DNA from: a virus
Length of the DNA: 64,000 nt
Strand: one strand, 5' to 3'
Virus record (IMG/VR): IMGVR_UViG_3300014565_000223
Under the pieces are notes generated by a model. That model was not told the DNA's origin and did no database searches. It worked only from the letters and a program-made list of their open reading frames with translations. Below are positions 24,808-61,507 of this stretch, one piece after another. Position 1 is the stretch's first letter. Every line of letters starts with the position of its first letter. The translations under genes were made by a program, and so were the position numbers.

Positions 24808-24847
24808 TAAGTGATTTGATAGAATGTGAGATTCGAGAGGTGACAAA

Positions 24848-25233: not shown

Positions 25234-25303
25234 TGACATATAGTCTAACGGAAAGAACGTGGCTTTTTAAGCTGAAATATTGGTTCGAATCCAATTGTGT
25301 CAT
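25234..25303 (+). tRNA. tRNA-like element (possible tRNA-Lys UUU or degenerate tRNA)
   Basis: Clean T-arm ATTGG-TTCGAAT-CCAAT and acceptor TGACATA/TGTGTCA (one G.U), but only a weak anticodon stem (2 G-C plus 2 G.U) around loop TTTTTAA. Preceded by an A10 run. Confidence 0.35.
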
Positions 25304-25380
25304 ATTTGTAATGATGTCGCGCGGATCATTACAGAAGAAAATAGTAACTACTGAAATGTATATTTAAGGAGGCAGTAAAC

Positions 25381-37320: not shown

Positions 37321-39618
37321 ATGAGTAAAAAAGAAGTGAAATTTAATTGTAAAATCGTAAAGTGTATGTATAATTCGGAGAATTACAAGATTTATGCTAC
37401 AGATGTAGATAAAAAAGAGTTCCCCAATATTAAACATAACAAATATGATAATGTCACCATTTATGGAGATGTACATAATTTAGTAGTTTCACAGTCGTAT
37501 GAAATTACGGCTGTGGAACAGCTCGATAAATATGGTTTTGGATATGATATTGTAAATGTGAGAATGGATAAGCCTAAAAATGAAGAAGAAGTTTATATGT
37601 TCTTAAGAGAAATTTTAACTGAGAACCAGGCAGGAGTACTTTGGCAGCATTATCCAGATATTATTGATATTGTGTTAAGGGGAGAAGCTGACACTGTTGA
37701 TCTTGATAAATTAAAAGGTATCGGAGAAAAAACATTTGAAACTATTAAAACAAAAATAGTTGAGAATTATTGTATCTATGATTTAGTAATTGAATTTGGT
37801 GGAATTCTCACAATGTCAATGTTAAAGAAATTATATGATGAATTTAAATCAATCCATAAAATGAAACAAGAATTAAGGAAGCAACCATATAAATCTTTGA
37901 CAAAAATATCTGGGGTAGGTTTTATTAAGGCAGATAGTATTCTCTTAGAATTGCAGAGACTCGGCAAGATCAATTTTCCGTTTGAATTAAAATCATCTGC
38001 GCAAAGATGTGCAGCATGTATGGAATATTATTTGGAAGAGAATCAAAAAGAGGGAAATACTAAAATGGATCTCCGCGATCTCAGAAAACAGGTTGTAAGA
38101 CTTGTTCCTGCTTGTTCATCACATTATGTTGAATGTTTAAAGGATCCAGATATTTATTATAACAAAGATACTTTTGAAGTATCTTTAAAAGCCACACATG
38201 ATACTGAAACTGCTATAGCTGCTATATTATTTGTAGCAAACTTAAAACCTAAAATATGGGATTTTGACTGGAAGAGTTATCAGACGTCGGGAGAGTATCA
38301 TTTAACTGACGAACAAACCAGTGCATTGGAATGTATATGTAACAATAATATTATGATACTGAATGGTTTTGCAGGATCAGGTAAAAGTGCCACTTCCGCA
38401 ATGATCATTAAAATGTTGGAGGATAACAATATTTCATATACTTTAATGGCTCCAACAGGACGCGCTGCAAAAGTGTTGAGTGATTATACCGGTAAGCCAG
38501 CGGCTACAATTCATCGTGGCTTAGGTTATATGCCGAAGAATAGGTGGGGATATGATAGTGAATGCAAACTCCCATTTGATGTTGTTCTTGTAGATGAATT
38601 CTCTATGACAGATATATTTCTGTTCTTACATTTGTGTGACGCAATTGATTTTAGCAGAACGAAACTTATTGTTGTAGGTGATTCAGCGCAGCTTCCATCT
38701 GTTGGACCGGGAAATCTACTTTATGATGTGATCAATTCATTTGTTATACCTACAGTGACTTTGAATCAAATTTTCAGGTATGCTGAGGGTGGGTTAATGA
38801 AAGTTGCTACTGATGTTAGAAATATGAAACCATATTTATATGATTTGAGTAATGGTATGGTAAAATTTGGCAAGGATTATACTTTTATTAATGCTAATAA
38901 TGAACAAGCAGTAAAATGTGCAATTGGATTATATCAGAAGCTTCTTTCTCAATATGTTCCTGAAGATATTCTTGTTCTATCTGCTTTCAATAAAGGTGAT
39001 TGTGGTACTATTGCAATTAATAATGCAGTCCAGAAAATTGCTAATCCAAACTATGGATCAGAAAAATGTATCAAATCTGGAGATACGACATATTACGTGG
39101 GTGATATAGTAATTCAGATCAAAAATAATTATGAAGCAGAAGTAGATATGGGGGATATGGAAATAGAAAATGCTTCTCAAAATGATGAACCTTCTATAGA
39201 TAAAACATTTATTCCTAATGGTATGTTAGGAAAGATTATTGATATTTATGACGAAATTGTTCCATATACAAATGAACATAAGACAGGCGCTATTATTGAT
39301 TTTGATGGTGTCAGAGTAAAATATGAAAAATCAGAAATGTCAATGTTGCTGCTTGGATATGCAATTTCTATTCATAAAAGCCAAGGAGGAAGTGCTAAGG
39401 TGACGATTACACTTACACCATCTTGTCATGCTTATATGATGAATTCTAATTTATTATATGTGGCATTAACACGTACAAAAGAAAAATGCTTTCATATTGG
39501 AGATAAAGACACTGTAAACAGATCCATTAAAAAGAAAGAGAATTTTAAGAGGAACACTTTTTTATTAGATATATTAAAGAAGTTAAAAATTAAATTAAAC
39601 AAAAAGGAGAGCAAATGA
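37321..39618 (+). CDS. RecD-like / SF1 5'-3' DNA helicase
   Basis: Walker A GFAGSGKS, Walker B VLVDEFSM, C-terminal SF1 motifs (SIHKSQGGS). ATG 37321 (track start 37315 is GTG). Confidence 0.8.
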   Translation: MSKKEVKFNCKIVKCMYNSENYKIYATDVDKKEFPNIKHNKYDNVTIYGDVHNLVVSQSYEITAVEQLDKYGFGYDIVNVRMDKPKNEEEVYMFLREILTENQAGVLWQHYPDIIDIVLRGEADTVDLDKLKGIGEKTFETIKTKIVENYCIYDLVIEFGGILTMSMLKKLYDEFKSIHKMKQELRKQPYKSLTKISGVGFIKADSILLELQRLGKINFPFELKSSAQRCAACMEYYLEENQKEGNTKMDLRDLRKQVVRLVPACSSHYVECLKDPDIYYNKDTFEVSLKATHDTETAIAAILFVANLKPKIWDFDWKSYQTSGEYHLTDEQTSALECICNNNIMILNGFAGSGKSATSAMIIKMLEDNNISYTLMAPTGRAAKVLSDYTGKPAATIHRGLGYMPKNRWGYDSECKLPFDVVLVDEFSMTDIFLFLHLCDAIDFSRTKLIVVGDSAQLPSVGPGNLLYDVINSFVIPTVTLNQIFRYAEGGLMKVATDVRNMKPYLYDLSNGMVKFGKDYTFINANNEQAVKCAIGLYQKLLSQYVPEDILVLSAFNKGDCGTIAINNAVQKIANPNYGSEKCIKSGDTTYYVGDIVIQIKNNYEAEVDMGDMEIENASQNDEPSIDKTFIPNGMLGKIIDIYDEIVPYTNEHKTGAIIDFDGVRVKYEKSEMSMLLLGYAISIHKSQGGSAKVTITLTPSCHAYMMNSNLLYVALTRTKEKCFHIGDKDTVNRSIKKKENFKRNTFLLDILKKLKIKLNKKESK

Positions 39619-40388
39619 AGTCAGAATTATTTAAAAACGAATTAAAAACAATTACTTCAGATGATATTCGTGATTTTGCAAAAGTTGTTTTGGACGATGC
39701 CCCAGACTATTTTTTCAAAGTTGCGGCAAGTTCTACAGGTAAATATCACCCGGCATACGCGCTGGGTGATGGCGGTTTAATGCGTCATACAAAAGCAGTA
39801 TTAAGGATTTACAATTATATCATCGGATTAGAACAGTACCAGAATCAGTTTGATGAGAGATGGATAGATCTTGGACGTGTTGCTTGTTTGGCACATGATA
39901 TTCAAAAGTCTGGTACTGCAGAAATATATGAAGAAAAGGCAAAGGATGGAAAAAAGGTGTTTACTGTATTTAATCATCCGTTGTTGGCAGCAGAATATAT
40001 TCGTAATTATAAAGGATTATATCTCGAAGATGATGAACTTGAGATTATTGCTGATGCTGTTTCGTCTCATATGGGACAATGGAACACAAGTGATAGAGAA
40101 AGTATTGTATTACCAAAGCCAAAATCACAGTTAGGGAAAATTGTACATGTAGCAGATTATTTGGCTTCCAGAAAAGACATTGATATTTCTTTTAAAGATG
40201 ATACTGATGCATATGATTTACCGGATATTGAGACATACAAATGTCCATACAAAAAGCATAAGGATGAATTACTGACAGATGTTGCAAAGACAGATCCTGA
40301 GTATCTGGAGTGGCTACATGAAAATGTTAATATGAGAGAACCTATGAAAACATTCGTAAATGAACTTTTAAAAAATAAAACAAATTAA
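39615..40388 (+). CDS. HD-domain phosphohydrolase
   Basis: H...HD metal-binding signature (KYHPAY...LAHDIQK). Confidence 0.65.
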   Translation: MKSELFKNELKTITSDDIRDFAKVVLDDAPDYFFKVAASSTGKYHPAYALGDGGLMRHTKAVLRIYNYIIGLEQYQNQFDERWIDLGRVACLAHDIQKSGTAEIYEEKAKDGKKVFTVFNHPLLAAEYIRNYKGLYLEDDELEIIADAVSSHMGQWNTSDRESIVLPKPKSQLGKIVHVADYLASRKDIDISFKDDTDAYDLPDIETYKCPYKKHKDELLTDVAKTDPEYLEWLHENVNMREPMKTFVNELLKNKTN

Positions 40389-41232: not shown

Positions 41233-41459
41233 ATGTATATTTTGCAAACGGAACTAATATTGTAGTTGGATGCGATAATGAAAAAGATAGTTATTATTTT
41301 TGCCAGAAAGATGGTAATGAGTGCTGCAAGAAAGATACTTGCAAAAGATTTCTTGATTCAGATGGCAATGTAAGCACAAGACTTTTTAAGATTATGTGTA
41401 ATGATGAAAATCATCACATCTTATATATACCGGAAAGGAATGAAACAAATAATGCATAA
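41229..41459 (+). CDS. small Cys-rich protein (76 aa)
   Basis: Seven Cys; ATGA overlap with the upstream gene. Confidence 0.35.
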   Translation: MNVYFANGTNIVVGCDNEKDSYYFCQKDGNECCKKDTCKRFLDSDGNVSTRLFKIMCNDENHHILYIPERNETNNA

Positions 41460-42024
41460 AAAGTTAGTATTTTTATTTATTGGAAGAACCGCTTCTGGTA
41501 AATCATCGCTTGCAAGATATATATGCGAGACATTAGGACTTCGACAGGTAAAAAGCATTACAACAAGACTGCCGCGCAAAGATGAAATAACAGGATATGA
41601 AGATCATTACTTTGTATCTGAGAGTGAATTCGATGAAATTAAATTTAAAGAAGGCTTTGTAGCGTATACTGAAATTAACGGAATTAAATATGGCACTACA
41701 TATAATGAAATTGTGAACTCAGATATTTATGTAATTGATCCGAACGGAGCAAAGTATTTGAAAGAACATTGCAAAGATGAATTTAAATTTATCGAGATTT
41801 ATTTTTCTTCACCATTTGAATTAGCAAAAGACAGGTTCCTTAAAAGAGATGGATCAGAAGAAGAATTTTACTCCAGATATAACAGTGAAGATGAACAATT
41901 CACTAAATATGAAGAAGCTGAAGGGTATGACCACTTATTTGTGAATGATATGAGCTTTTCGAAAGCTTCAGAAGCATTACGTGACTTACTTAAGAGTGAA
42001 ATGGAAAAGGAGAAATCGTTATGA
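41440..42024 (+). CDS. (deoxy)nucleoside monophosphate kinase (P-loop kinase)
   Basis: P-loop GRTASGKSS. ATG 41440 with GGAAAGGA RBS (track start 41401). Confidence 0.55.
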   Translation: MKQIMHKKLVFLFIGRTASGKSSLARYICETLGLRQVKSITTRLPRKDEITGYEDHYFVSESEFDEIKFKEGFVAYTEINGIKYGTTYNEIVNSDIYVIDPNGAKYLKEHCKDEFKFIEIYFSSPFELAKDRFLKRDGSEEEFYSRYNSEDEQFTKYEEAEGYDHLFVNDMSFSKASEALRDLLKSEMEKEKSL

Positions 42025-48390: not shown

Positions 48391-48641
48391 TGAGTAATCA
48401 TCGTAATCTTATTGATGTAATTGATAAAATTATAGCAATCACTCCAGAATCTGAAACAAAGTTTCTTTATGATTTAGAAGAATGTAGAAAAAAAATATGG
48501 TACCTCCCACCAGAACTTCTTGAAAATTATTGGATAAATGTATTTGATATATTATATTGCAATGTTTTTGATGAAAATTTCTTTGATAAGGATTCATGGA
48601 TGGAAGATGTACGTAAAGTTTGGATAGGAGAACATTTATGA
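48387..48641 (+). CDS. hypothetical protein (84 aa)
   Basis: ATGA overlaps on both sides. Confidence 0.4.
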   Translation: MMSNHRNLIDVIDKIIAITPESETKFLYDLEECRKKIWYLPPELLENYWINVFDILYCNVFDENFFDKDSWMEDVRKVWIGEHL

Positions 48642-49375
48642 TCTGGGTAACCGGAGATACGCATGGGGATTGGATCCATAGAGTTAATATGGATTCTTTT
48701 CCCGAACAGCGTGAGATGTCAAAGGACGATTATGTGATAATTCTTGGAGATTTTGGGATATGGAGAGATTCACCGCAGCAAAGGTGGTATCTGAATTGGC
48801 TTGAAGAGAAGCATTTCACAACACTCTTTATTGACGGAAATCATGAGAATTACGATATATTAGATTCTTATCCGGTAGAAGAATGGCATGGTGGTAAGGT
48901 GCATTTTATTAAACCATCGATAATTCATCTTATGAGAGGACAGGTATTTGATATAGACGGATTAAAATTCATTACCTTTGGAGGGGCTTCAAGTCATGAT
49001 ATTTCAGATGGAGTATTAGAGATTGACGATCCAAGAGTAAAGGAATGGAGAGATGATCCAGATAAAATGTACCGAATCAATCATATTTCATGGTGGGAAC
49101 GAGAAATGCCAAATCAAGAAGAGATGGATGAGGGTATAAAGAATCTGGCAGAACATAATAATAAGGTAGATTTTATCTTAACACATTGTACAGCTTCTTC
49201 TACAGCAGCATTATTATCACATGGACTATATAAGCCGGATAAGTTAACAAATTATCTGGAAGAAATAAGGCGCAATGTTGATTATAAGCGTTGGTTGTGT
49301 GGGCATTACCACGACAATAAAGCAATAACAATAAAAGATATAGTTATATATGAACAGATTGTGAGGATCGCATAA
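48638..49375 (+). CDS. calcineurin-like metallophosphoesterase
   Basis: GDTHGD, GDFG and GNHE motifs. ATG 48638 with AGGAG RBS. Confidence 0.7.
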   Translation: MIWVTGDTHGDWIHRVNMDSFPEQREMSKDDYVIILGDFGIWRDSPQQRWYLNWLEEKHFTTLFIDGNHENYDILDSYPVEEWHGGKVHFIKPSIIHLMRGQVFDIDGLKFITFGGASSHDISDGVLEIDDPRVKEWRDDPDKMYRINHISWWEREMPNQEEMDEGIKNLAEHNNKVDFILTHCTASSTAALLSHGLYKPDKLTNYLEEIRRNVDYKRWLCGHYHDNKAITIKDIVIYEQIVRIA

Positions 49376-49835: not shown

Positions 49836-50192
49836 ATGCCGGAACGTAACAGAGGGTATTTGAGAAAGCAAAGACTACGAAATATTGAACGTAGAAAAAA
49901 ATTAATAAGTCAACGAGAACTTATGTATCATGGATATAAAACTTTGAACGATCCTGATTTTAAAGAGGGGATGTTACATAAAGGACACAGTGGACGACTT
50001 GGCATGGGTGGAACTGCAGTAAAAACTAATACTCGTAAAGGACATGCTTCATATCGACATAAAGGTGCTTATGGTCAAGCTGATAATTATTCAAGACATG
50101 ATAAGCAGCAAGTTGAAGATGGAGCACAGCAAATTAAAGAATGGGAGAACGAAGATGGAAGAAGAGAAAAAGAAGGTTCTGATTGTAGTTGA
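49836..50192 (+). CDS. small basic protein (118 aa)
   Basis: Arg/Lys-rich N-terminus. Confidence 0.4.
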   Translation: MPERNRGYLRKQRLRNIERRKKLISQRELMYHGYKTLNDPDFKEGMLHKGHSGRLGMGGTAVKTNTRKGHASYRHKGAYGQADNYSRHDKQQVEDGAQQIKEWENEDGRREKEGSDCS

Positions 50193-50706
50193 TGTACAGA
50201 ATGATTTTGTAACCGGTTCACTTGGTACGCCGGAAGCCCAAGCTATTATTCCGAATGTAAAAGAGAAATTTGATGAATATAAGAATAATAAGAACTATGT
50301 AATTCTTACAAAGGATACTCATCATTCAGATTACGCAGATACTTCAGAGGGCAGAAAACTTCCTGAACATTGTATGTATGGTACTAAAGGTTGGGAAATT
50401 GTTGATGAACTTGATTATAAAAATCTCGATAGTTTTATGGTATGTTGTAAATCTACTTTTGGATTTGATGACTGGAATTGGGAAGAAATATTTAATACTA
50501 CAGATGGTTCTTTATTAGATATTGAAATTATTGGCATATGCACAGATATCTGTGTTATTACGAACGCTCTTTTGATTAAAACTTATTATCCAGAGGCAAA
50601 AATCACAGTTGATGCGTCATGTTGTGCCGGAACTACACCGGAGAAGCATAAAGCAGCACTTGATGTCATGGAAAGCTGTCAAATTAATGTGATAAATAAA
50701 AATTAA
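50155..50706 (+). CDS. isochorismatase-family hydrolase, nicotinamidase (PncA)-like
   Basis: LIVVDVQNDF N-terminal signature; catalytic Cys context IGICTDICV. ATG 50155. Confidence 0.65.
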   Translation: MEEEKKKVLIVVDVQNDFVTGSLGTPEAQAIIPNVKEKFDEYKNNKNYVILTKDTHHSDYADTSEGRKLPEHCMYGTKGWEIVDELDYKNLDSFMVCCKSTFGFDDWNWEEIFNTTDGSLLDIEIIGICTDICVITNALLIKTYYPEAKITVDASCCAGTTPEKHKAALDVMESCQINVINKN

Positions 50707-50714
50707 ATTAAACA

Positions 50715-51347
50715 ATGGAGGAAATCAAAATGATGAACAATTTTATGAATGGAATGTTTGGAAAAATCGGTAGTGGAATGTGCAAGTTATCCATGAGCGG
50801 TAATATTGCGGTAAAAACTTCTAATGGATATAAGAGTTACAATGTTAAATCCGGCAAGCTCACAAACTGTGGCAATTTCGTGTTTCCTGGAGTAGATGAA
50901 AACTTTTTCTTCGTCATTCCTACAAATAAGGTAACTAAAGGAGATATTATCCTTGTAAATGGCAAACCTAAGTGCGTCATCGAAGCAGATAAAACAAAGA
51001 TCACTGTAATCAATTATGAAGATTCTACAGTTGAAACAATTCTGCCGGAGCGCCATGTATTTATGGGAAATACTTATTTCTATGGAAAAATTGTATCTAT
51101 GTTCGGAAGTAATCTTGGAAAAGATAAGAATAGTGCAAATAAAATCTTTAAATATATGATGATGTCCCAGATGATGAATGGAGCGGCCGGTACCGGAACT
51201 GGAACAGACAGTAATCCAATGAGTGCTATGATGCCATTTATGATGATGAATGGTGGTATTGGTGATGTATTTGACGGTATGTTTGATTTTAGCATGGATG
51301 ATACAGACACAGAAGATAGTGAAGATGATTTAGAGGAGGATGAATAA
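50715..51347 (+). CDS. Met/Gly-rich protein with acidic C-terminal tail
   Basis: ATGGAGGAAATCAAAATG RBS. Confidence 0.45.
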   Translation: MEEIKMMNNFMNGMFGKIGSGMCKLSMSGNIAVKTSNGYKSYNVKSGKLTNCGNFVFPGVDENFFFVIPTNKVTKGDIILVNGKPKCVIEADKTKITVINYEDSTVETILPERHVFMGNTYFYGKIVSMFGSNLGKDKNSANKIFKYMMMSQMMNGAAGTGTGTDSNPMSAMMPFMMMNGGIGDVFDGMFDFSMDDTDTEDSEDDLEEDE

Positions 51348-51349
51348 TT

Positions 51350-52249
51350 ATGGGAAGCGGAAGTTGGGATACTAGAAGTTTTGTAAGTTATTCAACATCA
51401 AAAGGATATGGCACTGATTCACGAGGAGTAGTTACAGGAAGTTATTCTAATCAGGAAATGTTTAAAGCAAAAAATATTGATGCAGCACTCGATCCTAAAG
51501 GTGTTATTAGAGAATGTTGTGATAATGAAGAGCATCCGAATACTTTACCAGTCATTTTAGCTTTGGATGTCACAGGATCTATGGGACAGACCGCAGTAGA
51601 AATTGCAAAAAGACTTAATGAAATCATGACAAAATTATATGGTCAGATTAAAGATGTAGAATTTATGATTATGGGTATTGGTGATTTAGCATATGATAAT
51701 TATCCAATTCAGGCATCACAGTTTGAATCCGATATTAGAATTGCGGAGCAGCTTGATAAAATCTATTTTGAATTTGGCGGCGGAGGTAATTGTTTCGAGT
51801 CATATACTGCTGCTTGGTATTTTGGATCTCGTCATACAAAACTTGATTGTTGGAATAGGGGTAAAAAAGGCGTAATTATCACAATTGGGGACGAACGTCT
51901 TAATCCGTACTTACCAGTATCAGGACGACGCTCTGGATTAGGAATTACAACTGGCGATACGCTTCAGGCCGATGTAGAAACTAAAGATTTATATATGGAA
52001 ACATCTGAGAAATTTGATATTTATCACATTAATGTAAATCATCGTGATGGATATGACCAGAGAGGAATAGTTGAGTCTTTTTCAGAGTATCTTGATGATA
52101 ATCATTTTAGGACCATTAATCGTCTTGATGATATTGCAGATGAAATTGTAAAGATTGTAGTTGCGGCTGCAGAAAATAATGAACCTGTAGTAGTCTCATC
52201 CACTGTAATTTCTGCAGAGACAGATGAATCAGGAGCTATTGTTTGGTAA
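51350..52249 (+). CDS. von Willebrand factor A domain protein
   Basis: MIDAS motif LDVTGSMG. Confidence 0.6.
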   Translation: MGSGSWDTRSFVSYSTSKGYGTDSRGVVTGSYSNQEMFKAKNIDAALDPKGVIRECCDNEEHPNTLPVILALDVTGSMGQTAVEIAKRLNEIMTKLYGQIKDVEFMIMGIGDLAYDNYPIQASQFESDIRIAEQLDKIYFEFGGGGNCFESYTAAWYFGSRHTKLDCWNRGKKGVIITIGDERLNPYLPVSGRRSGLGITTGDTLQADVETKDLYMETSEKFDIYHINVNHRDGYDQRGIVESFSEYLDDNHFRTINRLDDIADEIVKIVVAAAENNEPVVVSSTVISAETDESGAIVW

Positions 52250-52261
52250 GGAGAATAACTT

Positions 52262-53371
52262 ATGAAAGATATAAAAATTGTCATCGGAGCAAACTTTGGT
52301 GACGAGGGCAAGGGTAAATTAACAGATTATTATACTAAAAATGCAGATAACTGTATCGTTGTGTGTTCAAATGGCGGTGCTCAAAGAGGACACACAGTAT
52401 TAAAATCAGACGGAACCCGGCATGTCTTTCATCATTTCGGCTCTGGAACATTAAACGGAGCAGATACTTATTTACCGGAGGATTTTATTTTAAATCCTCT
52501 GGTATTTAGGGAAGAATGGGAAGAGTTGAAGAAATTAGGATGGGAACCTTATGTGTACGTTCATGAACAATGTATGATTACGAATCCTCTTGATATGATG
52601 GCAAATCAAATTATTGAGCGAAGTCGCGGTAATAATAAACACGGAAGTTGTGGAATGGGTATTTATAATACCATTCAACGATATAAAAAGCATATTGATT
52701 CATATTCATTATCATGGACATATTATATGAACATGTTCAAAAACATGGGAATTACGTTATCTGAGCAGGAAGAAGAATTATTTCATCCCGTAAAAAATCC
52801 TGGGCTTCGAGACCATTACAATGAAGATCTTGATTTTATGATGTCTCATGTACATGTTGTAAATAATATTCAATTACTACTTAATGGATACGACACCATT
52901 GTGTTTGAAAATGGTCAGGGGCTTCTTTTGGATCAAAATAATACTGAATATTACCCACATCTTACACCATCAAATACTGGTATTAAGAATCCTGCCAGAA
53001 TTATAAAGGCTATAAGATGGACTGATGAAATTAATATAGAAGCTTGTTATGTGACACGTACATATATGACGCGGCATGGAGCCGGTGCGTTCCCAACTGA
53101 ATGTAATAAGGAAGAGATTAATCCGGACATCAAAGATTTAACCAATGTTCCAAATCCACATCAGGATACTTTGAGATATGGGAAGTTAAATGTGGAAGAA
53201 TTACATGAAAGATGTCAAGCAGACATAAAAACCTCTGGAATCCCATGTCGGAAGACATTGGCTATGACTCATATGAATGAATATTGCGAGTCTAATATAT
53301 CTCTTTATGAAATACATAAAATATTCAAAGATAACTGGAAATTAAAATTGTTTGAACGTGAGGAGAACTAA
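52262..53371 (+). CDS. adenylosuccinate synthetase-like protein, short form (PurA/PurZ family)
   Basis: N-terminal P-loop GANFGDEGKGKLTDYY matches the PurA signature GxQWGDEGKGK. At 369 aa it is shorter than bacterial PurA (~430), like archaeal PurA / phage PurZ. Confidence 0.6.
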   Translation: MKDIKIVIGANFGDEGKGKLTDYYTKNADNCIVVCSNGGAQRGHTVLKSDGTRHVFHHFGSGTLNGADTYLPEDFILNPLVFREEWEELKKLGWEPYVYVHEQCMITNPLDMMANQIIERSRGNNKHGSCGMGIYNTIQRYKKHIDSYSLSWTYYMNMFKNMGITLSEQEEELFHPVKNPGLRDHYNEDLDFMMSHVHVVNNIQLLLNGYDTIVFENGQGLLLDQNNTEYYPHLTPSNTGIKNPARIIKAIRWTDEINIEACYVTRTYMTRHGAGAFPTECNKEEINPDIKDLTNVPNPHQDTLRYGKLNVEELHERCQADIKTSGIPCRKTLAMTHMNEYCESNISLYEIHKIFKDNWKLKLFEREEN

Positions 53372-54169
53372 ATGATTAAATTAAACGACGTAGAAATCAA
53401 ACTTGATAAATATCCGGATGGAACATTCTTATTTAAGGATATTCCTCCTATTGGACCAAAAAACCTTATTGAATGGTTTTTTGAGTCAATGGAAGAAATG
53501 TCAGCAATTATTTATCTTACTCAATATTGTAAAGATCAGGGTACTGAAATTTATTTAGATATGCCATATATTCCTGATGCACGTATGGATAGAGTAAAAA
53601 AAAGAAAAGAAATCTTTACACTGAAATATTTTGCTCAAATTATTAACTTGTTGAATTTTAAACAGGTAGAAGTTTTAGATCCTCACTCTGATGTATCTGC
53701 CGCATTATTTAATAAAGTACATGTAGGAACCCCGAATCGAATGATTGAAACTGCTGTCAAGAAGATTGCTAGTAATAATCTCATGATGTTTTATCCAGAT
53801 GCGGGATCTATGAAAAGATATTCTTCAGCAGTACATCTTCCATATGCTTTCGGTATTAAGAATAGAGATTGGAAAACTGGAGAGATTAAAGGCTTAGATT
53901 TATCAGGTGAAATTGATCAGTTACCAGGTAAAGATATCCTTATTGTAGATGATATTTGTAGCAGAGGTGGTACTTTTTATTATAGTGCTAAAAAGCTGAA
54001 AGAGGCCGGTGTAGGTAAGATTTATCTTTATGTAACTCATTGTGAAAACACTATTTATGAAGGAGAACTTCTGAAAAATAATGGATTAATTGAGAAGATT
54101 TATACGACAGATACGATTTTGACAAATCTGGAAAGTCCTAAGATTGAATTGGTTGAGAGGTTTAGATAA
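53372..54169 (+). CDS. ribose-phosphate pyrophosphokinase-like protein (PRPP synthetase / Adps-like)
   Basis: PRPP-binding loop ILIVDDICSRGGT. 265 aa, shorter than canonical Prs. Confidence 0.6.
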   Translation: MIKLNDVEIKLDKYPDGTFLFKDIPPIGPKNLIEWFFESMEEMSAIIYLTQYCKDQGTEIYLDMPYIPDARMDRVKKRKEIFTLKYFAQIINLLNFKQVEVLDPHSDVSAALFNKVHVGTPNRMIETAVKKIASNNLMMFYPDAGSMKRYSSAVHLPYAFGIKNRDWKTGEIKGLDLSGEIDQLPGKDILIVDDICSRGGTFYYSAKKLKEAGVGKIYLYVTHCENTIYEGELLKNNGLIEKIYTTDTILTNLESPKIELVERFR

Positions 54170-54217
54170 GGAGGAATATTATGAAACAAATTATTATTCC
54201 TTTAGGGTGGTGAGAAA

Positions 54218-54688
54218 ATGAAAGAAATTTTAGGAAATAATCTTGAACAATTCTTTTTTGTATTATTAGATTTATTAGATTACCAAAAAGAATGTGGAGC
54301 GATATGCACATACAAGAGTAATAGATATGAAGTTTGGTTAATGTATGATGAAACATTTAATAGGATCTCAGATATGTCAGAAGAAGAATTTGTTAAATTC
54401 GCAGGTGAAGATGCTTGGTGGAGAAGTAGCAATGGTAGTGTATTATATTCACTTGATAAAGGAGAAATAACAATTAATCATAAGAAAATGATTGGATGGA
54501 TTAGAAAACCTGGGGATGAAGAAATATCAACAGATATTGAATATTCATCATTAACAGAATATTTATGTGAATTTATTGGGGCTTCTACACCTCATAATGT
54601 TGTTGCTTGTGCAATGGATTTGGGTAAATTTAATCATTTGACAATGGGTAGATTGTTTAAAAAATATGAACCAGTGGAGGATGAATGA
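54218..54688 (+). CDS. hypothetical protein (156 aa)
   Basis: GGGTGGTGAGAAAATG RBS. Confidence 0.45.
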   Translation: MKEILGNNLEQFFFVLLDLLDYQKECGAICTYKSNRYEVWLMYDETFNRISDMSEEEFVKFAGEDAWWRSSNGSVLYSLDKGEITINHKKMIGWIRKPGDEEISTDIEYSSLTEYLCEFIGASTPHNVVACAMDLGKFNHLTMGRLFKKYEPVEDE

Positions 54689-54983
54689 AGAAATGATGTT
54701 TACAGTTTGTAATGTTCCAAAGTTTTTAGAGGAACAGATGAATAAAATGAAAGACACTATTACGAGTGATATGAATGAAGATAATCTTAAAGGTTATGAG
54801 TATGCAGTTGAAACTATGTTAAGTATTATTAGACAGACAATTCATGCTGCCGAGATGGATGATGAAATTCTTGTGCATAGCGATAAGATTGCTGATGAGA
54901 ACGATATTGAAGAGTTTGATTTACATGATTTGTTAGGACTTTATGGTTGTAGAGTTGTGGCACAGAAAGAATTTGAAGAATAA
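54681..54983 (+). CDS. hypothetical acidic protein
   Basis: ATG 54681 with GTGGAGG RBS. Confidence 0.4.
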   Translation: MNEEMMFTVCNVPKFLEEQMNKMKDTITSDMNEDNLKGYEYAVETMLSIIRQTIHAAEMDDEILVHSDKIADENDIEEFDLHDLLGLYGCRVVAQKEFEE

Positions 54984-55061
54984 TACATGCAAAAAAGCAA
55001 TCTTTTTTCGGAGAATCAATGTGAAATATGAAAGAATGCAAGAGGAATGGAGAAATAGTAT

Positions 55062-55403
55062 ATGAAAGCACAGATTTGCGAAACGTGTGTACATAAACAT
55101 GATAGATGTTATTGCAGTCCGAATAGTACATGTGATAAGTATAAGAAAATTCAAATGGTAGAAAAGAAATCATGGGAAGAATTTAAGAATAACGGATTTC
55201 TCTGGTGGATTAATATGATTTTACATACATTCGGATGGGCGATTTGTGTAGATATCGAAGAAGACGGATCAGTTTCAAATGCTTATCCTGCCAGAGTAAA
55301 ATTCAGAGGATTTGCAGAGAAGAATAATACAGATGGTTATATTAAAGTCAGTCAATATTTGAAAGACAATGTGGACGAGCTTGTAAAAGAAGCGAATGAT
55401 TAA
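55062..55403 (+). CDS. Cys-rich protein (CETCVHKHDRCYCSPNSTC) with TM segment
   Basis: ORF. Confidence 0.4.
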   Translation: MKAQICETCVHKHDRCYCSPNSTCDKYKKIQMVEKKSWEEFKNNGFLWWINMILHTFGWAICVDIEEDGSVSNAYPARVKFRGFAEKNNTDGYIKVSQYLKDNVDELVKEAND

Positions 55404-55412
55404 GGAGGAGTT

Positions 55413-56888
55413 ATGAATAATACTTTAGCAATTTTACTTTCAGATACATATAAACAAATTCATAATAAAATCTATCCAAAAGGATTAACAAAACTTGTTT
55501 CCTACTGGACTCCACGACGATCAATGCTTAAGAATCAGAACAAAATGGTATTCTTTGGTCTACAGGCATTTATTGAAGAATATCTGATTGATTATTTTAA
55601 TAAAAACTTTTTTGAATTAACAGCAGCAGAAGTTGAGCATACATATAAATACAGTATGGATATACAGTTAGGAAATAGTTATGACCTAGAGCCTATTATA
55701 AAACTTCATAAATTAGGCTATCTTCCAATTCGGATTCGTGCTATTCCGGAAGGAACATTGGTACCAATGGGTATTCCATGTATTGAAATTACAAATACAC
55801 ATCCAGATTTTGCTTGGGTAGTACAGTGGATCGAATGTATCCTGCAGGTTGAACTCTGGAAACCATGTGCTCATGCAACAATTGGTCATATGTATAGAGA
55901 ACTTGCAAATGACTACTATAAAATGACCTGTGATGACTTTTTAAGACCTGAAATGGCCTGCTCAGACTTTGGTATGAGAGGAATGTCTTGTATGGAAGAG
56001 GCCGTGAGATGCTCGTCTGCTTGGTTATTATCATTTGATAAGACAAGCACAATTCCTGCTATTGATTATATAGATACATATTATGATGCTTGCTGTTGGA
56101 CTGAAAGAATCGGAATTGGTGCTGTATCAACAGAACATTCAGTTATGGCTTCAAATTATGCAGTAGACGGTGATGAAATCACATTTGTAAAAAGACTACT
56201 TACGGAACTATATCCTAATGCATCTTTTAGTATGGTATCTGACACTTATGATTACTGGAACATGATTGATAATATTCTTCCGGCTTGTAAAAAAGAAATC
56301 ATGCAGCATAATGGCAAACTTCTGGTCCGTCCAGATTCCGGAGATATGGTAGAAATTGCTGTAGAGACAATTGAAAAGCTTTGGAATACATTCGGCGGAA
56401 CAGTAAATAGCAAAGGATATAAAGTACTTGATTCTCACATTGGAATTATCTATGGAGACGGATGTACTCTTAATAATGTAAAGCAGGTATGGGAAGAACT
56501 GAAGAAAAAAGGATTTGCTGCAAACAATATCGTATTCGGAGTCGGAGCATTTTGCTTCTCAGCAGTTATAGAACCTGATGGATACATGGTTGTTGTAACT
56601 AGAGATATGTTTGGCATTGCTATGAAAGCTACATATGGAATCGTCAACGGTGAACCAATTATGATTTATAAAGATCCCAAAACCGATACGAGTCATTTGA
56701 AAAAATCTCATAAAGGGTGTTGTTGTATATATTACGATGACAATGGAGAATTACAGTGTGAAGACGGGTATAATGATGTATTTCGTGACGGAGCGTTAAG
56801 TACCGTATTTGTAGATGGGAAAGCTTGCAATAAAGAAACATTTGAAGACATTAGAGAAAGATTAAACGGAGGAAACAAAGATGAGTAA
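55413..56888 (+). CDS. nicotinamide phosphoribosyltransferase family (Nampt / NadV; could be the Namat variant)
   Basis: Collinear with Nampt: DTYK (DSYK), FFGLQ, IRAIPEGTLVP...WIECILQ, DFGMRG, SDTYD, VRPDSGD, NSKGYKVL...YGDG. Confidence 0.85.
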   Translation: MNNTLAILLSDTYKQIHNKIYPKGLTKLVSYWTPRRSMLKNQNKMVFFGLQAFIEEYLIDYFNKNFFELTAAEVEHTYKYSMDIQLGNSYDLEPIIKLHKLGYLPIRIRAIPEGTLVPMGIPCIEITNTHPDFAWVVQWIECILQVELWKPCAHATIGHMYRELANDYYKMTCDDFLRPEMACSDFGMRGMSCMEEAVRCSSAWLLSFDKTSTIPAIDYIDTYYDACCWTERIGIGAVSTEHSVMASNYAVDGDEITFVKRLLTELYPNASFSMVSDTYDYWNMIDNILPACKKEIMQHNGKLLVRPDSGDMVEIAVETIEKLWNTFGGTVNSKGYKVLDSHIGIIYGDGCTLNNVKQVWEELKKKGFAANNIVFGVGAFCFSAVIEPDGYMVVVTRDMFGIAMKATYGIVNGEPIMIYKDPKTDTSHLKKSHKGCCCIYYDDNGELQCEDGYNDVFRDGALSTVFVDGKACNKETFEDIRERLNGGNKDE

Positions 56889-57354
56889 AATTACAGATTA
56901 TTTATTAAAAGATGATGTAATTGTAGTAATGGATGTGGACGGTGTGCTTGCTCCATATGAATTTTCAGAACTGAGTCACAGTATGACTGATGATGAATGG
57001 GATAGACTTGTAGCTTCCGGTGAGAATCCGTATAAAGATGTACGTCCGATTAAATTAATGCAAGAGTTTATTCAGAAGAAAGGTATTGATAAAGTATATA
57101 CCTGTTCAAAGAGTCCTTTCAGTGAGATCCCCGGCAAAAGAGCTTTTATCAAAGATAATTACGGCCTTCCGGATGATAATATCTATTTTACTTTAGAAAA
57201 GACAGAAAAACTTACTGTGCTTCAGACGCTGCAACAAAAGCTTGGGCTTAAGCCGTCTCAGATTGCAATTGTAGAGGATACAGTAAAAACTTTGGATTAT
57301 ATTCGTGCACATAGTGATTTTGTAACTGTACACGTTTCATCATTTATGGAGTAA
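56881..57354 (+). CDS. HAD-superfamily 5'(3')-deoxyribonucleotidase-like (NT5C family)
   Basis: N-terminal VVMDVDGVLAPYEF matches the NT5C DMDGVLADFE motif. Confidence 0.5.
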   Translation: MSKITDYLLKDDVIVVMDVDGVLAPYEFSELSHSMTDDEWDRLVASGENPYKDVRPIKLMQEFIQKKGIDKVYTCSKSPFSEIPGKRAFIKDNYGLPDDNIYFTLEKTEKLTVLQTLQQKLGLKPSQIAIVEDTVKTLDYIRAHSDFVTVHVSSFME

Positions 57355-57369
57355 AGAGGAGTAAAGAGA

Positions 57370-57909
57370 ATGAATTTACAAAGTATTAGTAGATATATAA
57401 GTCTTATATTAAGACATAAGCCTGAAGTTATTGGTATTACTATAGATGAACATGGTTGGGCGAATGTAGAAGAACTGATTCAGGGTATCGCTAAAAACAA
57501 TCCCGGATTCAACAAAGAATTTTTAGAGGAAATTGTACGGACTGACAATAAGCAGCGATATTCTTTCAATGATGACAAGACATTGATCAGAGCGAATCAG
57601 GGACATTCAATTCCGGTAGATGTAGAACTGGAAGAGAAAGAGCCACCTAAAATTCTTTATCATGGAACTGGCGAGAAATATATAGCGTCTATTGATCAGA
57701 ATGGACTGATTCCTAAAAGTCGTTTATATGTTCATTTGTCAAAAGATGTTGAAACCGCCAAAGCTGTCGGCAAGAGACATGGTAAAGAAGTTGTTTATTC
57801 TATCAATAGTGAACAGATGTACAAAGATGGATACAAATTTTACTTATCTAAAAATGGAGTTTGGCTGACTAAAAGGGTTCCAGTGAAATATTTAATGAAG
57901 GAGGTATAA
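57370..57909 (+). CDS. RNA 2'-phosphotransferase Tpt1/KptA family
   Basis: N-terminal [13 protein letters not shown] signature of Tpt1; HGT and R-rich catalytic region; 179 aa. Confidence 0.7.
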
Positions 57910-57911
57910 AA

Positions 57912-58319
57912 ATGAGTAGTACATATTTTACGGATTCAGTTTCAGATCTTTGTCAGGGGATTGTTGATAAAGCAGATACTTATGAAAAACGAATTAAATA
58001 CTTAGAAGAAGAAAACAAGAAGCTCAAAGATGAGCATTATAAAGATTCTGAAATGCAGAGAATGGAAGCAGAATTGAAAAAAGCGAAAGAGGATCTGTAT
58101 AGAGGATTTCCAATTTCAGAAAAAGAACAAGAGAAAATCAGAGAGTGGGAATTAAAACATGATGCTGAGAAACATGGTTTGAAAACTATGGAACAGAGAG
58201 CAATGGGACATGGTTGCATAGGCGGCTCTCTTACATGGTGCTTTACACCAACATCAATCGGAACTATTGGAGAAGTGATTTGCTCCTGTGGTGAGAAGTT
58301 TACATTTCAGGATTTATAG
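57912..58319 (+). CDS. coiled-coil protein with C-terminal Cys cluster
   Basis: ORF; HGCIGG...CSCGE. Confidence 0.4.
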   Translation: MSSTYFTDSVSDLCQGIVDKADTYEKRIKYLEEENKKLKDEHYKDSEMQRMEAELKKAKEDLYRGFPISEKEQEKIREWELKHDAEKHGLKTMEQRAMGHGCIGGSLTWCFTPTSIGTIGEVICSCGEKFTFQDL

Positions 58320-58329
58320 GAAAAGATTT

Positions 58330-58830
58330 ATGATTAAAATTATTGAAGGTAATATCGTTAATGCAAAGACAGATTTTATAATTCATCAGGTTAACTGCCA
58401 AGGAGAAATGAACACTGGAGTTGCTAAAGCATTAAGAGATTATGATGAAGGTATTTATAAACACTATAGAAAGTTTTGTGAATTTTGTAAGTTCGAGTCG
58501 GAAAAACTACTCGGAACGTGTGATACATATTTCTTGAAAGATAGATGTCAAATTGTATTGTCTTTATTCGCACAAAATAAATATGGATATGATGGTAAAC
58601 AGTATACAGATCTTGAAGCTTTTAGAGAAGGTTTAAGATATATTTCGCAACATTTTGGAGTATGGTGTGAAATAAATGGACCAGAGGGAAAAGATCTTCG
58701 TAGAATCTCAGTAGCGCTTCCGTATAAGATTGGTTGTGGAAGAGGGGGAGCAGACTGGGAAATGGTTTATAAAATCATTGAAGAGGAACTTAAAGATTAT
58801 GATGTGGAATTATGGAGGCTGGATGAATGA
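58330..58830 (+). CDS. macro domain protein (ADP-ribose / Appr-1''-p processing)
   Basis: IIHQVNCQGEMNTGVAKAL matches the macro-domain N-terminal motif. ATG 58330. Confidence 0.6.
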   Translation: MIKIIEGNIVNAKTDFIIHQVNCQGEMNTGVAKALRDYDEGIYKHYRKFCEFCKFESEKLLGTCDTYFLKDRCQIVLSLFAQNKYGYDGKQYTDLEAFREGLRYISQHFGVWCEINGPEGKDLRRISVALPYKIGCGRGGADWEMVYKIIEEELKDYDVELWRLDE

Positions 58831-59252
58831 GCGAGGCGATGAATATTATTATAGCCGGTTCACGAGATTTTGATGATTATCGTTTGCTTAAGAAAACTGT
58901 GTCAGATTATATCGAAGAGAATCAAGTTAATAACACTCAGCAAATTAGAGTTATCAGTGGTGGTGCAAAAGGTGCAGATAGGCTTGGTGAATGTTATGCG
59001 TTTGATAATGGTTACTCCGTTATAAGATTTCAAGCGTTATGGGGAGTTTATGGAAAGTCTGCTGGCCCTAGACGTAATAATGAAATGGCAAAATTTGCAT
59101 CAGAATCAGGCTCTGGTACGTTGATCGCATTTTGGGATGGTGAATCGCGAGGTACAAAAAATATGATTGATACTGCAAGAAGATATGGATTACATGTAAT
59201 TGTAGTTGAATATGAAAAAGATTCGGAGGAATTAAATGAACAGAAAAGATAA
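58827..59252 (+). CDS. SLOG-superfamily protein (DUF2493 / Smf-DprA-LOG like)
   Basis: Rossmann-like AGSRDF, GGAKGADRLGE and WDGESRGT motifs. Confidence 0.45.
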   Translation: MSEAMNIIIAGSRDFDDYRLLKKTVSDYIEENQVNNTQQIRVISGGAKGADRLGECYAFDNGYSVIRFQALWGVYGKSAGPRRNNEMAKFASESGSGTLIAFWDGESRGTKNMIDTARRYGLHVIVVEYEKDSEELNEQKR

Positions 59253-59520
59253 TACATTAGAAGGAATAGGTGCGTTTACAGTAATCATCCTTGCGATTTT
59301 CACTCTTGTTATTAGTCCGGCATTATCATTTATGTTTGCTTACATAGGTGGATGTATACTGAAATTTTTTGTAGGGGACGCATTGGTTAATGGATTAAAT
59401 ATCATATTTAATACAACTAGATTTACGAAACCAATGATCCCTGTTATTTGTGCAACAATTGCAACAATTGGTAAATATTTTAAAACAACAGTCGATATGT
59501 CAAGACATAAAGGACAGTAG
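59236..59520 (+). CDS. small membrane protein (94 aa)
   Basis: Two hydrophobic helices. Confidence 0.4.
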   Translation: MNRKDNTLEGIGAFTVIILAIFTLVISPALSFMFAYIGGCILKFFVGDALVNGLNIIFNTTRFTKPMIPVICATIATIGKYFKTTVDMSRHKGQ

Positions 59521-59574
59521 GAGTTACATATAAATTCTTATGAAAGTAAGAAAGGAACTGCAGGAGGAATCAAA

Positions 59575-59934
59575 ATGAAAAAGGTAACTACTATATTAAT
59601 TCTTCTGCTTATCAGTGCATTTATGTTGACTGGTTGCGCTAAATGTATTGATAAGAAAGAAGAAAGTGTAAAAGTCAAAATTGTTAATGAATACTATAAA
59701 CCGAAAGAAACTCGTTTCATAGGTATAATTAATCATGTTCCACAATTTCGGACAGATTATGCCGAGTATGAAATTACGGTAGACTATAACGGAGTGGAAT
59801 ATTCACTTAGTGATGAAAGTACATATCGTAAATATCATGGAAGAATAGGACAAACAGTGTCTGCCGTATTGATTACAAAGACATATGATAATGGCAATGT
59901 TAAACAATATATTAATTGTTTAGGAGGATTATAA
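59575..59934 (+). CDS. putative lipoprotein
   Basis: Signal peptide plus lipobox LTGC; GGAGGAATCAAAATG RBS. Confidence 0.5.
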   Translation: MKKVTTILILLLISAFMLTGCAKCIDKKEESVKVKIVNEYYKPKETRFIGIINHVPQFRTDYAEYEITVDYNGVEYSLSDESTYRKYHGRIGQTVSAVLITKTYDNGNVKQYINCLGGL

Positions 59935-59935
59935 G

Positions 59936-60697
59936 ATGAAATATTACGATGGATATTTTAAAGAACTCAAGAATGAAATTGTACAGTGGATCAGAGACTG
60001 GTTCGATCAGAATGGTCCCGGCTGCAATGCAATTGTAGGAATCTCTGGTGGAAAAGATTCTTCTGTAGTAGCAGCGCTTTGTGCAGAAGCTCTTGGAAAA
60101 GATCGTGTAATTGGTGTACTGATGCCACAGGGTCAGCAGAAAGATATTTATGCTGCGTATAAGCTTTGTGAATTTCTTGATATTAAATCATACGAAATCA
60201 ACATTGGCGACACAGTTCGAAGTGTATTGTCAAGACTCGAAAGCTCAGGAATCGAGATCAGCGAACAGACAAAAATAAATCTTCCGGCACGTATTAGAAT
60301 GTCTACATTATATGCTGTCTCTCAGTCTTGTAATGGAAGAGTAGCAAATACATGTAATCTTTCAGAATCATATGTCGGTTATGAAACCAGGTATGGTGAT
60401 TCGGCAGGGGATTTTAGTCCGTTAGGAAAATTAACTGTATATGAAGTTAAAAAACTTGGATATGAATTATTGCTTCCTACAGAACTTATTGAAAAGATTC
60501 CAATTGATGGATTATGTGGAAAGACAGATGAGGACAATTTAGGATTCCCATATGAAGTTCTGGACAGATATCTTCGTACAGGAGAGATTGACGATCTGGC
60601 TGTAAAAGCTAAGATTGATTTAATGCATAAACGATGTCTCTTCAAATCAGAGAAGATTCCGGTATTTAATCCTGAATTAAAAGTGGAGGCAGAATAA
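59936..60697 (+). CDS. nadE: NH3-dependent NAD+ synthetase
   Basis: PP-loop GISGGKDSS; 253 aa. Confidence 0.8.
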   Translation: MKYYDGYFKELKNEIVQWIRDWFDQNGPGCNAIVGISGGKDSSVVAALCAEALGKDRVIGVLMPQGQQKDIYAAYKLCEFLDIKSYEINIGDTVRSVLSRLESSGIEISEQTKINLPARIRMSTLYAVSQSCNGRVANTCNLSESYVGYETRYGDSAGDFSPLGKLTVYEVKKLGYELLLPTELIEKIPIDGLCGKTDEDNLGFPYEVLDRYLRTGEIDDLAVKAKIDLMHKRCLFKSEKIPVFNPELKVEAE

Positions 60698-60957
60698 TGG
60701 AGAACATATTTATATCATTCTTGTTAATCGAAATTCTTTTCACAACAATTTTAATAATTAATTGTGCAATTGATGAATTATTACCAATAAAAGAATATAA
60801 AAAGTGGTCCCAAAATAAAAATTGGTTCGGTAAGATATATATATTTCTTACAGTTATATTTACTATTCCTGCAGCAATTATTATATATATCGCTTTTTCC
60901 ATTGTGTTCTTAGTAACATTTATTTATACACTTGGAATTAAAGAGGAGAAGAAATAA
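60697..60957 (+). CDS. small membrane protein (86 aa)
   Basis: Two TM helices. Confidence 0.4.
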   Translation: MENIFISFLLIEILFTTILIINCAIDELLPIKEYKKWSQNKNWFGKIYIFLTVIFTIPAAIIIYIAFSIVFLVTFIYTLGIKEEKK

Positions 60958-60958
60958 C

Positions 60959-61507
60959 ATGAAACCATATGATGTTGGGCTTGTTTGTGGGCGTTTTCAA
61001 ACGTTCCACAAAGGCCATGAAAAACTTATTGATACTGGTTTGTTGATTTGTGATCGGATGCTCATTCTTGTTGGTAGTGCTCAAGAATGCGGGACAGAAC
61101 GTAATCCTTTGAATGTCAATACTAGAATCAAGATGATACGTGAAGTGTATGGTGATAATCCGAATATTATGATTTATGCATTATCAGACCTTACTGATGA
61201 AAATGATATCACACCAGATTGGGGTAGATATCTTCTTCAAAATGCAGATCGATATATTTATAAAAATCCAGATGTAATGATTTATGGTAATGATGATAGC
61301 CGGAGTGGATGGTTCGACAAGAAAGATTTAAAGAACACAACCGAATTAATAATTAATCGTGAAGAATTACCCATCTCTGGGACCATGTTGAGAGCACTTA
61401 TGATACAGGATAAACGGCGAGAATGGATGACTTTTGTTAATCCTAAGTTACATAAAATGTATGATGAAATTCGTAGTGAACTTATGGAAAGCATAAAGGA
61501 GAATTAA
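60959..61507 (+). CDS. nicotinamide/nicotinate mononucleotide adenylyltransferase (archaeal/NadM-type NMNAT)
   Basis: VGLVCGRFQTFHKGHEKLI, the (H/T)xGH nucleotidyltransferase motif. ATG 60959 after AAGAGGAGAAGAAATAAC. Confidence 0.75.
   Translation: MKPYDVGLVCGRFQTFHKGHEKLIDTGLLICDRMLILVGSAQECGTERNPLNVNTRIKMIREVYGDNPNIMIYALSDLTDENDITPDWGRYLLQNADRYIYKNPDVMIYGNDDSRSGWFDKKDLKNTTELIINREELPISGTMLRALMIQDKRREWMTFVNPKLHKMYDEIRSELMESIKEN

Follow-up and report, generated by a model that had tools for sequence, protein, structure and literature searches.

Whether neighbouring phage genes for a Tpt1/KptA RNA 2'-phosphotransferase, a macro-domain protein and a SLOG protein act together, and on what, is the question raised by positions 57370–59252 of a stretch of viral DNA of 64,000 nucleotides (IMG/VR record IMGVR_UViG_3300014565_000223; the whole stretch is called the window below). 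The original prediction, made from the sequence, placed the three genes in a row inside an NAD cluster and regarded them as one module for processing ADP-ribose (ADPR) and RNA 2'-phosphates, either in RNA repair or in the removal of ADP-ribose marks. The open reading frames (ORFs) encoding Tpt1 (57370–57909), the macro-domain protein (58330–58830) and the SLOG protein (58827–59252) were found exactly where they had been placed, on the + strand and within a co-directional NAD cluster. They are tightly packed and point in one direction, but an orphan ORF of 135 aa, h135 (57912–58319), separates Tpt1 from the macro gene. The segment is best explained as an expanded NAD+ reconstitution island, in which a NARP1-AP operon (Adps, Namat and the macro protein as the predicted phosphatase Adpp) forms the core and Tpt1 and SLOG are optional one-gene cassettes; we give this reading a probability of roughly two in three (0.68).

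RES-domain defence proteins (aRES) were reported to cleave NAD+ to nicotinamide and ADPR-1''-phosphate, a product that NARP1 is unable to use. In 15% of NARP1 operons a Poa1p-like macro gene, Adpp, is present, the product of which dephosphorylates ADPR-1''-phosphate, and an operon of Adps, Adpp and Namat, named NARP1-AP, overcomes aRES defence (Osterman et al., bioRxiv 10.64898/2026.01.28.702374).

For the comparison of gene order, 23 window proteins were mapped onto 103 fetched loci, and the mapping was repeated with a PncA query; counts refer to the 53 macro loci for which 3.5 kb or more of upstream sequence was available. Adps-like and Namat-like genes were found upstream of the macro gene in all 53 loci. 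In most loci NadE was located just downstream of the macro gene (directly downstream in groups 2 and 3) and a PncA-like gene flanked the set. Tpt1 was present in 22/53 and SLOG in 14/53 loci, and the macro gene occurred without Tpt1 in 31 of the 53, including all of the most distant lineages. Among group-2 loci, in which the macro protein is ~68% identical, Tpt1 was missing from 16 of 18, leaving a clean junction from the HAD-like gene to h135. SLOG was missing from ~10 contigs that were otherwise 97–100% identical, with the junction at the microhomology AATGA, a stop/start overlap. The linkage of the macro gene to Adps and Namat held down to 39–44% macro identity, also in phages without Tpt1, h135 and SLOG. 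Dozens of independent metagenomic contigs show the same order of genes, so that the arrangement is not due to chance. This comparison shows that Tpt1 and SLOG are one-gene cassettes gained and lost independently, and that the gene conserved alongside the NAD genes is the macro gene; a fixed Tpt1-macro-SLOG module was not supported.

At this macro identity of 39–44% the operon is compact; an example is locus L055, with PncA at 5087–5704, Adps at 5694–6542, Namat at 6508–8004, the macro gene at 8001–8492 and NadE at 8547–9305. Besides, a PncA-like homologue was found beside Adps-Namat-macro-NadE in most divergent lineages listed, which suggests that PncA-like and NadE genes flanking Adps-Namat-macro make up a conserved five-gene set. 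PncA-like and NadE proteins are not described as NARP1 partners in the accessible portions of the two Sorek-laboratory NARP1 papers.

In four loci (L111–L114) the order HAD-Tpt1-h135-macro-(SLOG) was kept with divergent alleles of Tpt1 (76% identity), h135 (53%) and the macro protein (86%) between flanks of 94–100% identity. These loci carry an extra 182-aa gene and a NADAR-domain gene (7601–8579 in L111) at a position that is empty in the window (59520–59575), and many IMG/VR loci also contain ~1.3 kb of extra sequence between the homologues of mem94 and lipo119. A crAss001_48-family gene was seen after NMNAT in L111 and L113. In group-2 contigs (e.g., L035–L048) the NAD island showed 83–97% protein identity to that of the window, and no match was found to the RNA ligase or the AAA_24 gene of the window. 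These group-2 contigs suggest that the NAD island is passed as a mosaic module from one phage lineage to another.

For the macro protein (166 aa), no direct Pfam match was obtained. PF01661 is carried by homologues of ~45% identity, PHROG 335 ('phosphatase') was matched with E=3e-37, and the AlphaFold2 model, with a predicted local distance difference test (pLDDT) score of 87.5, had the macro domains of DarG, BT1257, Poa1p and TARG1 as its top Foldseek matches in PDB, at a template modelling (TM) score of ~0.7. Homologues, PHROG and predicted fold all agree with the macro assignment. A hidden Markov model (HMM) built from 11 diverse NARP1-associated Adpp sequences (preprint Table S1) gave 111 bits for the window protein compared to 55 bits for Thermus aquaticus DarG and 36 bits for Poa1p. 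The motifs H-x-x-N-C, [FY]-x-Q and GCG-x-GG-x-W are common to the macro protein and the Adpps, including that of Vibrio phage Gary, and H19 of the macro protein aligns to Poa1p H23. The position of T. aquaticus DarG K80, which we take to be the catalytic lysine equivalent to TARG1 K84, is occupied by Q82, and this Gln was invariant in 32 homologues and all 11 Adpps. Compared to the tested Adpp of phage Gary, the macro protein showed 25–28% identity (pairwise E=2e-9), and for this reason its phosphatase activity is given here as predicted.

The proposal that the macro gene encodes a Poa1-like Appr-1''-p phosphatase is probably right, and the annotation that seems to fit best is that of a putative NARP1-associated phosphatase, not that of a member of an RNA-repair trio. 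The suggested removal of ADP-ribose marks is weakened because an invariant Gln replaces the catalytic lysine of DarG and TARG1. As to allelic variation, the macro allele of the window had no IMG/VR match above 94%, though the flanking Tpt1, h135 and SLOG genes were 100% identical in the same contigs; compared to locus L006 it differed by 17 nt, giving 10 amino acid changes, all within residues 59–125 and away from the conserved motifs.

The product of the Adps gene (53372–54169), which is Prs-like and is predicted to be the ADPR pyrophosphokinase of the pathway, shared 42% identity (E=2e-44) with the characterized Adps of SPbetaL1, the gene of which directly precedes that of Namat. It matched PHROG 619 (E=3e-68) and scored below every NCBIfam Prs cutoff, with a best PDB Prs match of 57 bits. 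The Lys in its 'GIKNRDW' motif aligns to K162, the catalytic Lys of SPbetaL1 Adps (bioRxiv 10.1101/2024.02.11.579819). The gene for the second enzyme, a putative nicotinamide ADP-ribose transferase of the NAMPT fold (55413–56888), lies 1.2 kb downstream of Adps in the window, with three small ORFs in between on the + strand, and is adjacent to Adps in relatives. Its product scored 395 bits against the SPbetaL1 Namat structures (PDB 9W5X/9W5W) and ~199 bits against human NAMPT, and the arginine of 'VRPDSGD' (SPbetaL1 R306) is conserved. It is likely a Namat, with a signature motif that is kept in part.

In the NARP1-AP reading, Adps (53372) would pyrophosphorylate ADP-ribose, Namat (55413) would join the ADPR pyrophosphate (ADPR-PP) and nicotinamide to give NAD+, and the macro protein (58330), acting as Adpp, would convert ADPR-1''-phosphate made by aRES NADases to ADPR. 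NadE, NMNAT and the PncA-like enzyme would add conventional salvage capacity. A deamido form of NARP1, in which nicotinate and ADPR-PP are joined and the product is passed to NadE, was considered because PncA-like and NadE genes flank the operon; it is disfavoured, since the Namat-like protein keeps the Asp of 'SDFGMRG', which we take to be NAMPT D219, the nicotinamide-specificity residue.

The Tpt1 protein (179 aa) matched PF01885 over profile positions 5–176 of 177 (E=3e-48, 164.6 bits, cutoff 26), the NCBIfam equivalog NF002014 (261 bits, cutoff 239) and PHROG 5470 (E=2e-84). It aligned without gaps and at an offset of +1 to the tRNA 2'-phosphotransferase in PDB 7KW8 (E=2e-48), which we take to be Runella slithyformis Tpt1 with the catalytic residues R16-H17-R64-R119. 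The corresponding tetrad is intact in the phage protein (R15, H16, R63, R118), and the assignment made in the original prediction, together with the expected R-H-R-R tetrad, was borne out. The protein is probably an intact NAD+-dependent RNA 2'-phosphotransferase that removes RNA 2'-phosphates. In agreement with the statement that phage Tpt1 has essentially not been characterized, a literature search found no experimental study of a phage Tpt1.

Most likely, Tpt1 would serve during infection to clean up RNA ends or junctions that bear a 2'-phosphate. The by-products of this reaction would be nicotinamide and ADPR-1'',2''-cyclic phosphate, which, once ring-opened, are the inputs expected for Adpp and NARP1, so that the placement of Tpt1 in the island would make its reaction NAD-neutral. 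That Tpt1 is a deliberate extension of the island, running an NAD-neutral dephosphorylation cycle on RNA or on another phosphorylated ribose defence product, with by-products recycled via a ring-opening enzyme, Adpp, Adps and Namat, seems unlikely to us. The ring-opening enzyme in such a cycle could be h135, the HAD-like protein or the calcineurin-like phosphoesterase of the phage. If true, the cycle would be the first physiological context for a bacterial-type Tpt1. ADPR-PP has been reported to decay spontaneously to ADPR-cyclic phosphate (Sorek group).

Two other explanations of the trio were weighed against this evidence. For jumbo phages, an RNA-repair scheme of the order KptA, 2H, Macro had already been put forward on computational grounds (PMC7824862; PMC9503650 is likewise cited for it). 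Applied to the window, Tpt1 would remove the 2'-phosphate that remains once a tRNA has been healed and ligated, and the main task of the macro protein, together with SLOG, would be to dispose of the ADP-ribose cyclic phosphate as yeast Cpd1/Poa1 do. The three genes are contiguous in this sense and co-directional, the macro protein is Poa1p-like, and the phage encodes, besides an RNA ligase, a calcineurin-like and an HD phosphoesterase and four tRNAs, one of them tRNA-Lys(UUU); the Tpt1-h135-macro order kept with divergent alleles in L111–L114 also agrees with joint function. However, the macro gene stays with Adps and Namat in the loci without Tpt1, the most distant lineages included, and SLOG is absent from near-identical phages and located elsewhere in others. 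Besides, 10 other phage Tpt1 loci were examined (three cultured, seven IMG/VR), and none contained a macro gene of this family within 7–9 kb; the neighbours of these Tpt1 genes include Thg1, NADAR, an NMNAT-like gene and GmrSD_N. The ligase of the window belongs to the PF09414 family, for which we know of no requirement for a 2'-PO4. A search for a polynucleotide kinase and a cyclic phosphodiesterase had also been proposed, and a Pfam scan of ~65 window proteins detected neither (for the latter, 2H/LigT); ~100 kb of the genome lies outside the window. A single RNA-repair module is, on balance, improbable. The co-occurrence of Tpt1 and the RNA ligase was discarded as a test: the Tpt1-less group-2 phages also had no match to the ligase or the AAA_24 replication gene, and since they appear to be different phages sharing only the NAD island, they offer no independent contrasts.

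Less probable still is a macro protein of the DarG/TARG1 glycohydrolase type, which would either take off the ADP-ribose that host defence ADP-ribosyltransferases, DarT-like or other, had placed on phage DNA or RNA, or reverse ADP-ribose capping of 5'-phosphates by Tpt1. DarG macro domains were the best PDB matches by both sequence and structure, and a separate ADP-ribosylglycohydrolase is also encoded by the phage. The NCBIfam DarG model NF048014 was matched with E=2e-12 (47 bits, cutoff 250) over residues 1–51 only, and the PADLOC DarG model with E=5e-15 over the N-terminal ~55 residues only, so that both matches were partial and far below cutoff. The Adpp profile scored the window protein twice as high as DarG itself, the invariant Gln stands at the position of the catalytic Lys, and the obligate neighbours of the macro gene are NAD-synthesis genes. 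Among the genes neighbouring the macro gene, no family match to a DarT-type or other ADP-ribosyltransferase was found except for Tpt1.

Several observations count against the NARP1-AP reading itself. Identity of the macro protein to the 11 listed Adpps was low (~25–33%), and sequence alone has no power to separate phosphatases from glycohydrolases in this macro class. The Namat signature (SCH motif), an adenine clamp, has the form GS-x-Phi-x-Phi-x-Phi-TRD (PMC12774641); in the window it reads GAFCFS, a 10-aa insertion, and VVTRD, so that the first aromatics are kept and the rest displaced. This insertion was present in all close relatives and is lineage-specific. Counted from Namat, the macro gene of the window comes fourth and falls outside the 'within two genes' rule of the preprint, whereas in the related lineages L055–L068 it overlaps the end of Namat and falls within it. 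Because neither a 2H or other cyclic phosphodiesterase nor a polynucleotide kinase was detected among the ~65 window proteins scanned, the proposed link from Tpt1 to Adpp is left without its middle step, and Tpt1 lies 31 kb from the RNA ligase.

The SLOG protein (141 aa) passed the gathering score of PF10686, the YAcAr family (50.4 bits, cutoff 28.2, E=2e-13), showed a weak DprA match (PF02481, E=5e-4), and was matched to PHROG 289. PF10686 is carried by almost all of the 120 listed homologues of 3252 found. The SLOG assignment of the original prediction was thereby upheld; with the Tpt1 tetrad in place and the macro assignment supported, none of the outcomes that were to count against the prediction was obtained. 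In other phages, homologues of 51–58% identity occupied quite different settings, either a replication/recombination module or a group of small genes without annotation.

Tentatively, SLOG, and possibly h135, may have an anti-signalling role, in which Thoeris/TIR signals of the cyclic-ADPR type would be bound or cleaved by the YAcAr SLOG protein, with ADPR fed to NARP1; or SLOG may be a DprA-like recombination mediator that binds single-stranded DNA and is unrelated to NAD. Viral SLOG domains have been predicted to process ADPr-derived signals (PMC9503650), and YAcAr-family SLOG domains to make such signals from NAD+ (PMC7824862). In a 2026 preprint (PMC13232231), accessory enzymes are reported to degrade ADPR-based signals and fuel NAD+ synthesis; a parallel is offered by RyR-domain proteins, recently reported to degrade ADPR-based signals. 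The DprA alternative is favoured by the weak PF02481 match and by the context in L105, where a 51%-identical homologue lies between replication and recombination genes. Against these readings, no conserved linkage of SLOG to NAD genes was seen outside this phage group, no sequence relative was found in PDB, there is no biochemical precedent for YAcAr proteins, and SLOG is dispensable, as its presence or absence among near-identical phages shows.

The orphan h135 showed no Pfam, PHROG or PADLOC family match, and its AlphaFold2 model (pLDDT 82.6), in which a small beta domain follows a long coiled coil, gave no significant fold match in PDB or BFVD. There were 420 homologues in gut metagenomes, none of them annotated. 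The residues H83, H88, C124 and C126 are invariant, and this His2-Cys2 set is a possible zinc or other metal site. In groups 1 and 2, h135 immediately precedes the macro gene, also where Tpt1 is absent. No other gene of the block diverges as much: identity in L111–L114 is 53%, compared to 76–100% for the neighbouring genes, a pattern that would suit a protein in contact with a host factor. Alternatively to a ring-opening role, this fast-evolving protein might be a direct inhibitor of a defence NADase.

The remaining genes of the island belong to the same unbroken gene run, 50044–61507, with tight spacing or overlaps and ribosome-binding sites (RBS) mostly of the GGAGG type. At its upstream edge is the PncA-like isochorismatase-family gene for a putative nicotinamidase (50044–50706; PF00857, E=2e-22), followed by a 210-aa ORF of unknown function and a gene for a vWA-like protein (51350). 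Directly upstream of Adps, a divergent PurA-like protein of 369 aa is encoded (52262–53371). Its identification as PurZ was rejected (45 bits, NCBIfam cutoff 300), and every PDB match listed for it (E up to 1e-5) is an entry deposited as an adenylosuccinate synthetase. After Namat in the closer lineages comes a divergent HAD-like protein with a DVDGV motif (56881–57354), present in most group-1 and group-2 loci, which matched NCBIfam HAD-IA below cutoff (E=4e-6) and gave no Pfam, PHROG or PDB match. Two small membrane/lipoprotein-like ORFs lie between SLOG and NadE, the NAD+ synthetase (59936–60697; PF02540, E=2e-52; TIGR00552), and one small membrane ORF between NadE and an NMN/NaMN adenylyltransferase of the archaeal NadM type without a Nudix domain (NMNAT, 60959–61507; PF01467, E=1e-10). 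For the latter, NF002243 and TIGR01527 were matched, both below cutoff. The G+C content is ~33% throughout the window, and all genes examined, including those listed here, are on the + strand. Promoter and terminator consensus scans gave results at chance level, and an Rfam scan revealed no riboswitch or other family beyond four tRNAs.

A megablast search of 12 kb against cultured phages gave no match, and the phage is without a close cultured relative. Relatives were found as many contigs of 125–175 kb in IMG/VR and in public metagenome assemblies, including Human Microbiome Project samples, and the nearest INPHARED records were from human faeces or gut. The source is a large human-gut phage of roughly 125–175 kb.

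Outside the island, the genes for tRNA-Gln(UUG), tRNA-Leu(CAA), tRNA-Met(CAU) and tRNA-Lys(UUU) are located at 21710–25304, interleaved with the gene at 23834 and just upstream of the RNA ligase gene; tRNA-Lys(UUU) is a classic anticodon-nuclease target. The ADP-ribosylglycohydrolase predicted at 23834 was confirmed by a PF03747 match (E=2e-28). The gene product at 25887, predicted to be an Rnl2-like ligase, was found to be an RNA ligase (PF09414, E=1e-26) but not clearly of the Rnl2 type, as its weak PDB matches were archaeal RNA-ligase entries, which we take to be of the Rnl3 family. A calcineurin-like phosphoesterase (48620–49375), an HD-domain protein (39615–40388) and a guanylate-kinase-like P-loop protein (41401–42024) are possible RNA-end-healing enzymes. 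At 14656–15150 a Tad2-like (Thoeris anti-defence 2) protein is encoded (PF11195, E=1.4e-23), which is a second NAD/ADPR-centred counter-defence gene in this phage. An NAD+-dependent DNA ligase of the LigA type with a BRCT domain is encoded at 9813–11813; since this enzyme is NAD+-dependent, the phage's own DNA ligase consumes NAD+. The Tad2-like protein, the ADP-ribosylglycohydrolase and this ligase fit a phage heavily invested in NAD/ADPR conflicts. The window also contains a gene for a P-type cation-transporting ATPase of 873 aa (16108–18729), which is not usual in phages; vWA-TerF-like, TerD and PspA-like genes come next (18731–20942).

NAD+ depletion is among the commonest bacterial anti-phage strategies. 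The divergent form of NARP1-AP was found to be widespread in abundant human-gut phages, with more than 1,000 member sequences in one allele cluster alone, and this wide gut distribution within a larger gene set argues that, in the gut, defences of the RES type and others directed at NAD exert an important selective pressure. The main system had already been described; the divergent form, its spread in the gut, the PncA/NadE partners and the embedded Tpt1 cassette are new. Placed two genes from a predicted ADPR-1''-P phosphatase, in a phage with an RNA ligase and tRNA-Lys, the Tpt1 cassette provides a concrete setting for asking what bacterial and phage Tpt1 act on under physiological conditions.

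Compared to the kptA genes of cultured phages (Clostridioides phage phiCD211, Erwinia Agricanvirus and Dickeya AD1), Tpt1 of the window is of similar size (~180 aa) and 46–59% identical; the neighbours in those phages are unrelated or hypothetical, without NAD, macro or SLOG genes. In the yeast by-product pathway, Tpt1 is followed by Cpd1, a 2H cyclic phosphodiesterase, and by Poa1p. Tpt1 and a Poa1p-like macro protein are encoded two genes apart in the window and the chemistry would connect them, but the window scan found no cyclic phosphodiesterase and no ligase known to make 2'-PO4 junctions, and conservation of the macro gene does not depend on Tpt1. With DarG and TARG1 the macro protein shares a subclass by fold (TM ~0.7) and a very similar N-terminal ADP-ribose-binding loop; it differs from them by the Gln in place of the catalytic Lys, the lack of a DarT partner and, at 166 aa, the lack of a C-terminal DarT-binding domain. 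The closest likeness is to NARP1-AP of Vibrio phage Gary, with which the window has in common a Prs-like Adps, a NAMPT-like Namat and a Poa1p-like macro protein encoded in one co-directional cluster, and in the sister lineage L055 the macro gene directly abuts Namat. The window differs from NARP1-AP by the HAD-like gene, Tpt1 and h135 between Namat and the macro gene, and by the 10-aa insertion in the adenine-clamp motif of Namat. The hosts of the phages reported with NARP1-AP include Vibrio, Pseudomonas, Acinetobacter and Pseudoalteromonas, whereas the window phage is from human-gut metagenomes, has GGAGG-type RBS, and adds PncA-like, NadE, NMNAT and SLOG genes and two small membrane proteins to the system.

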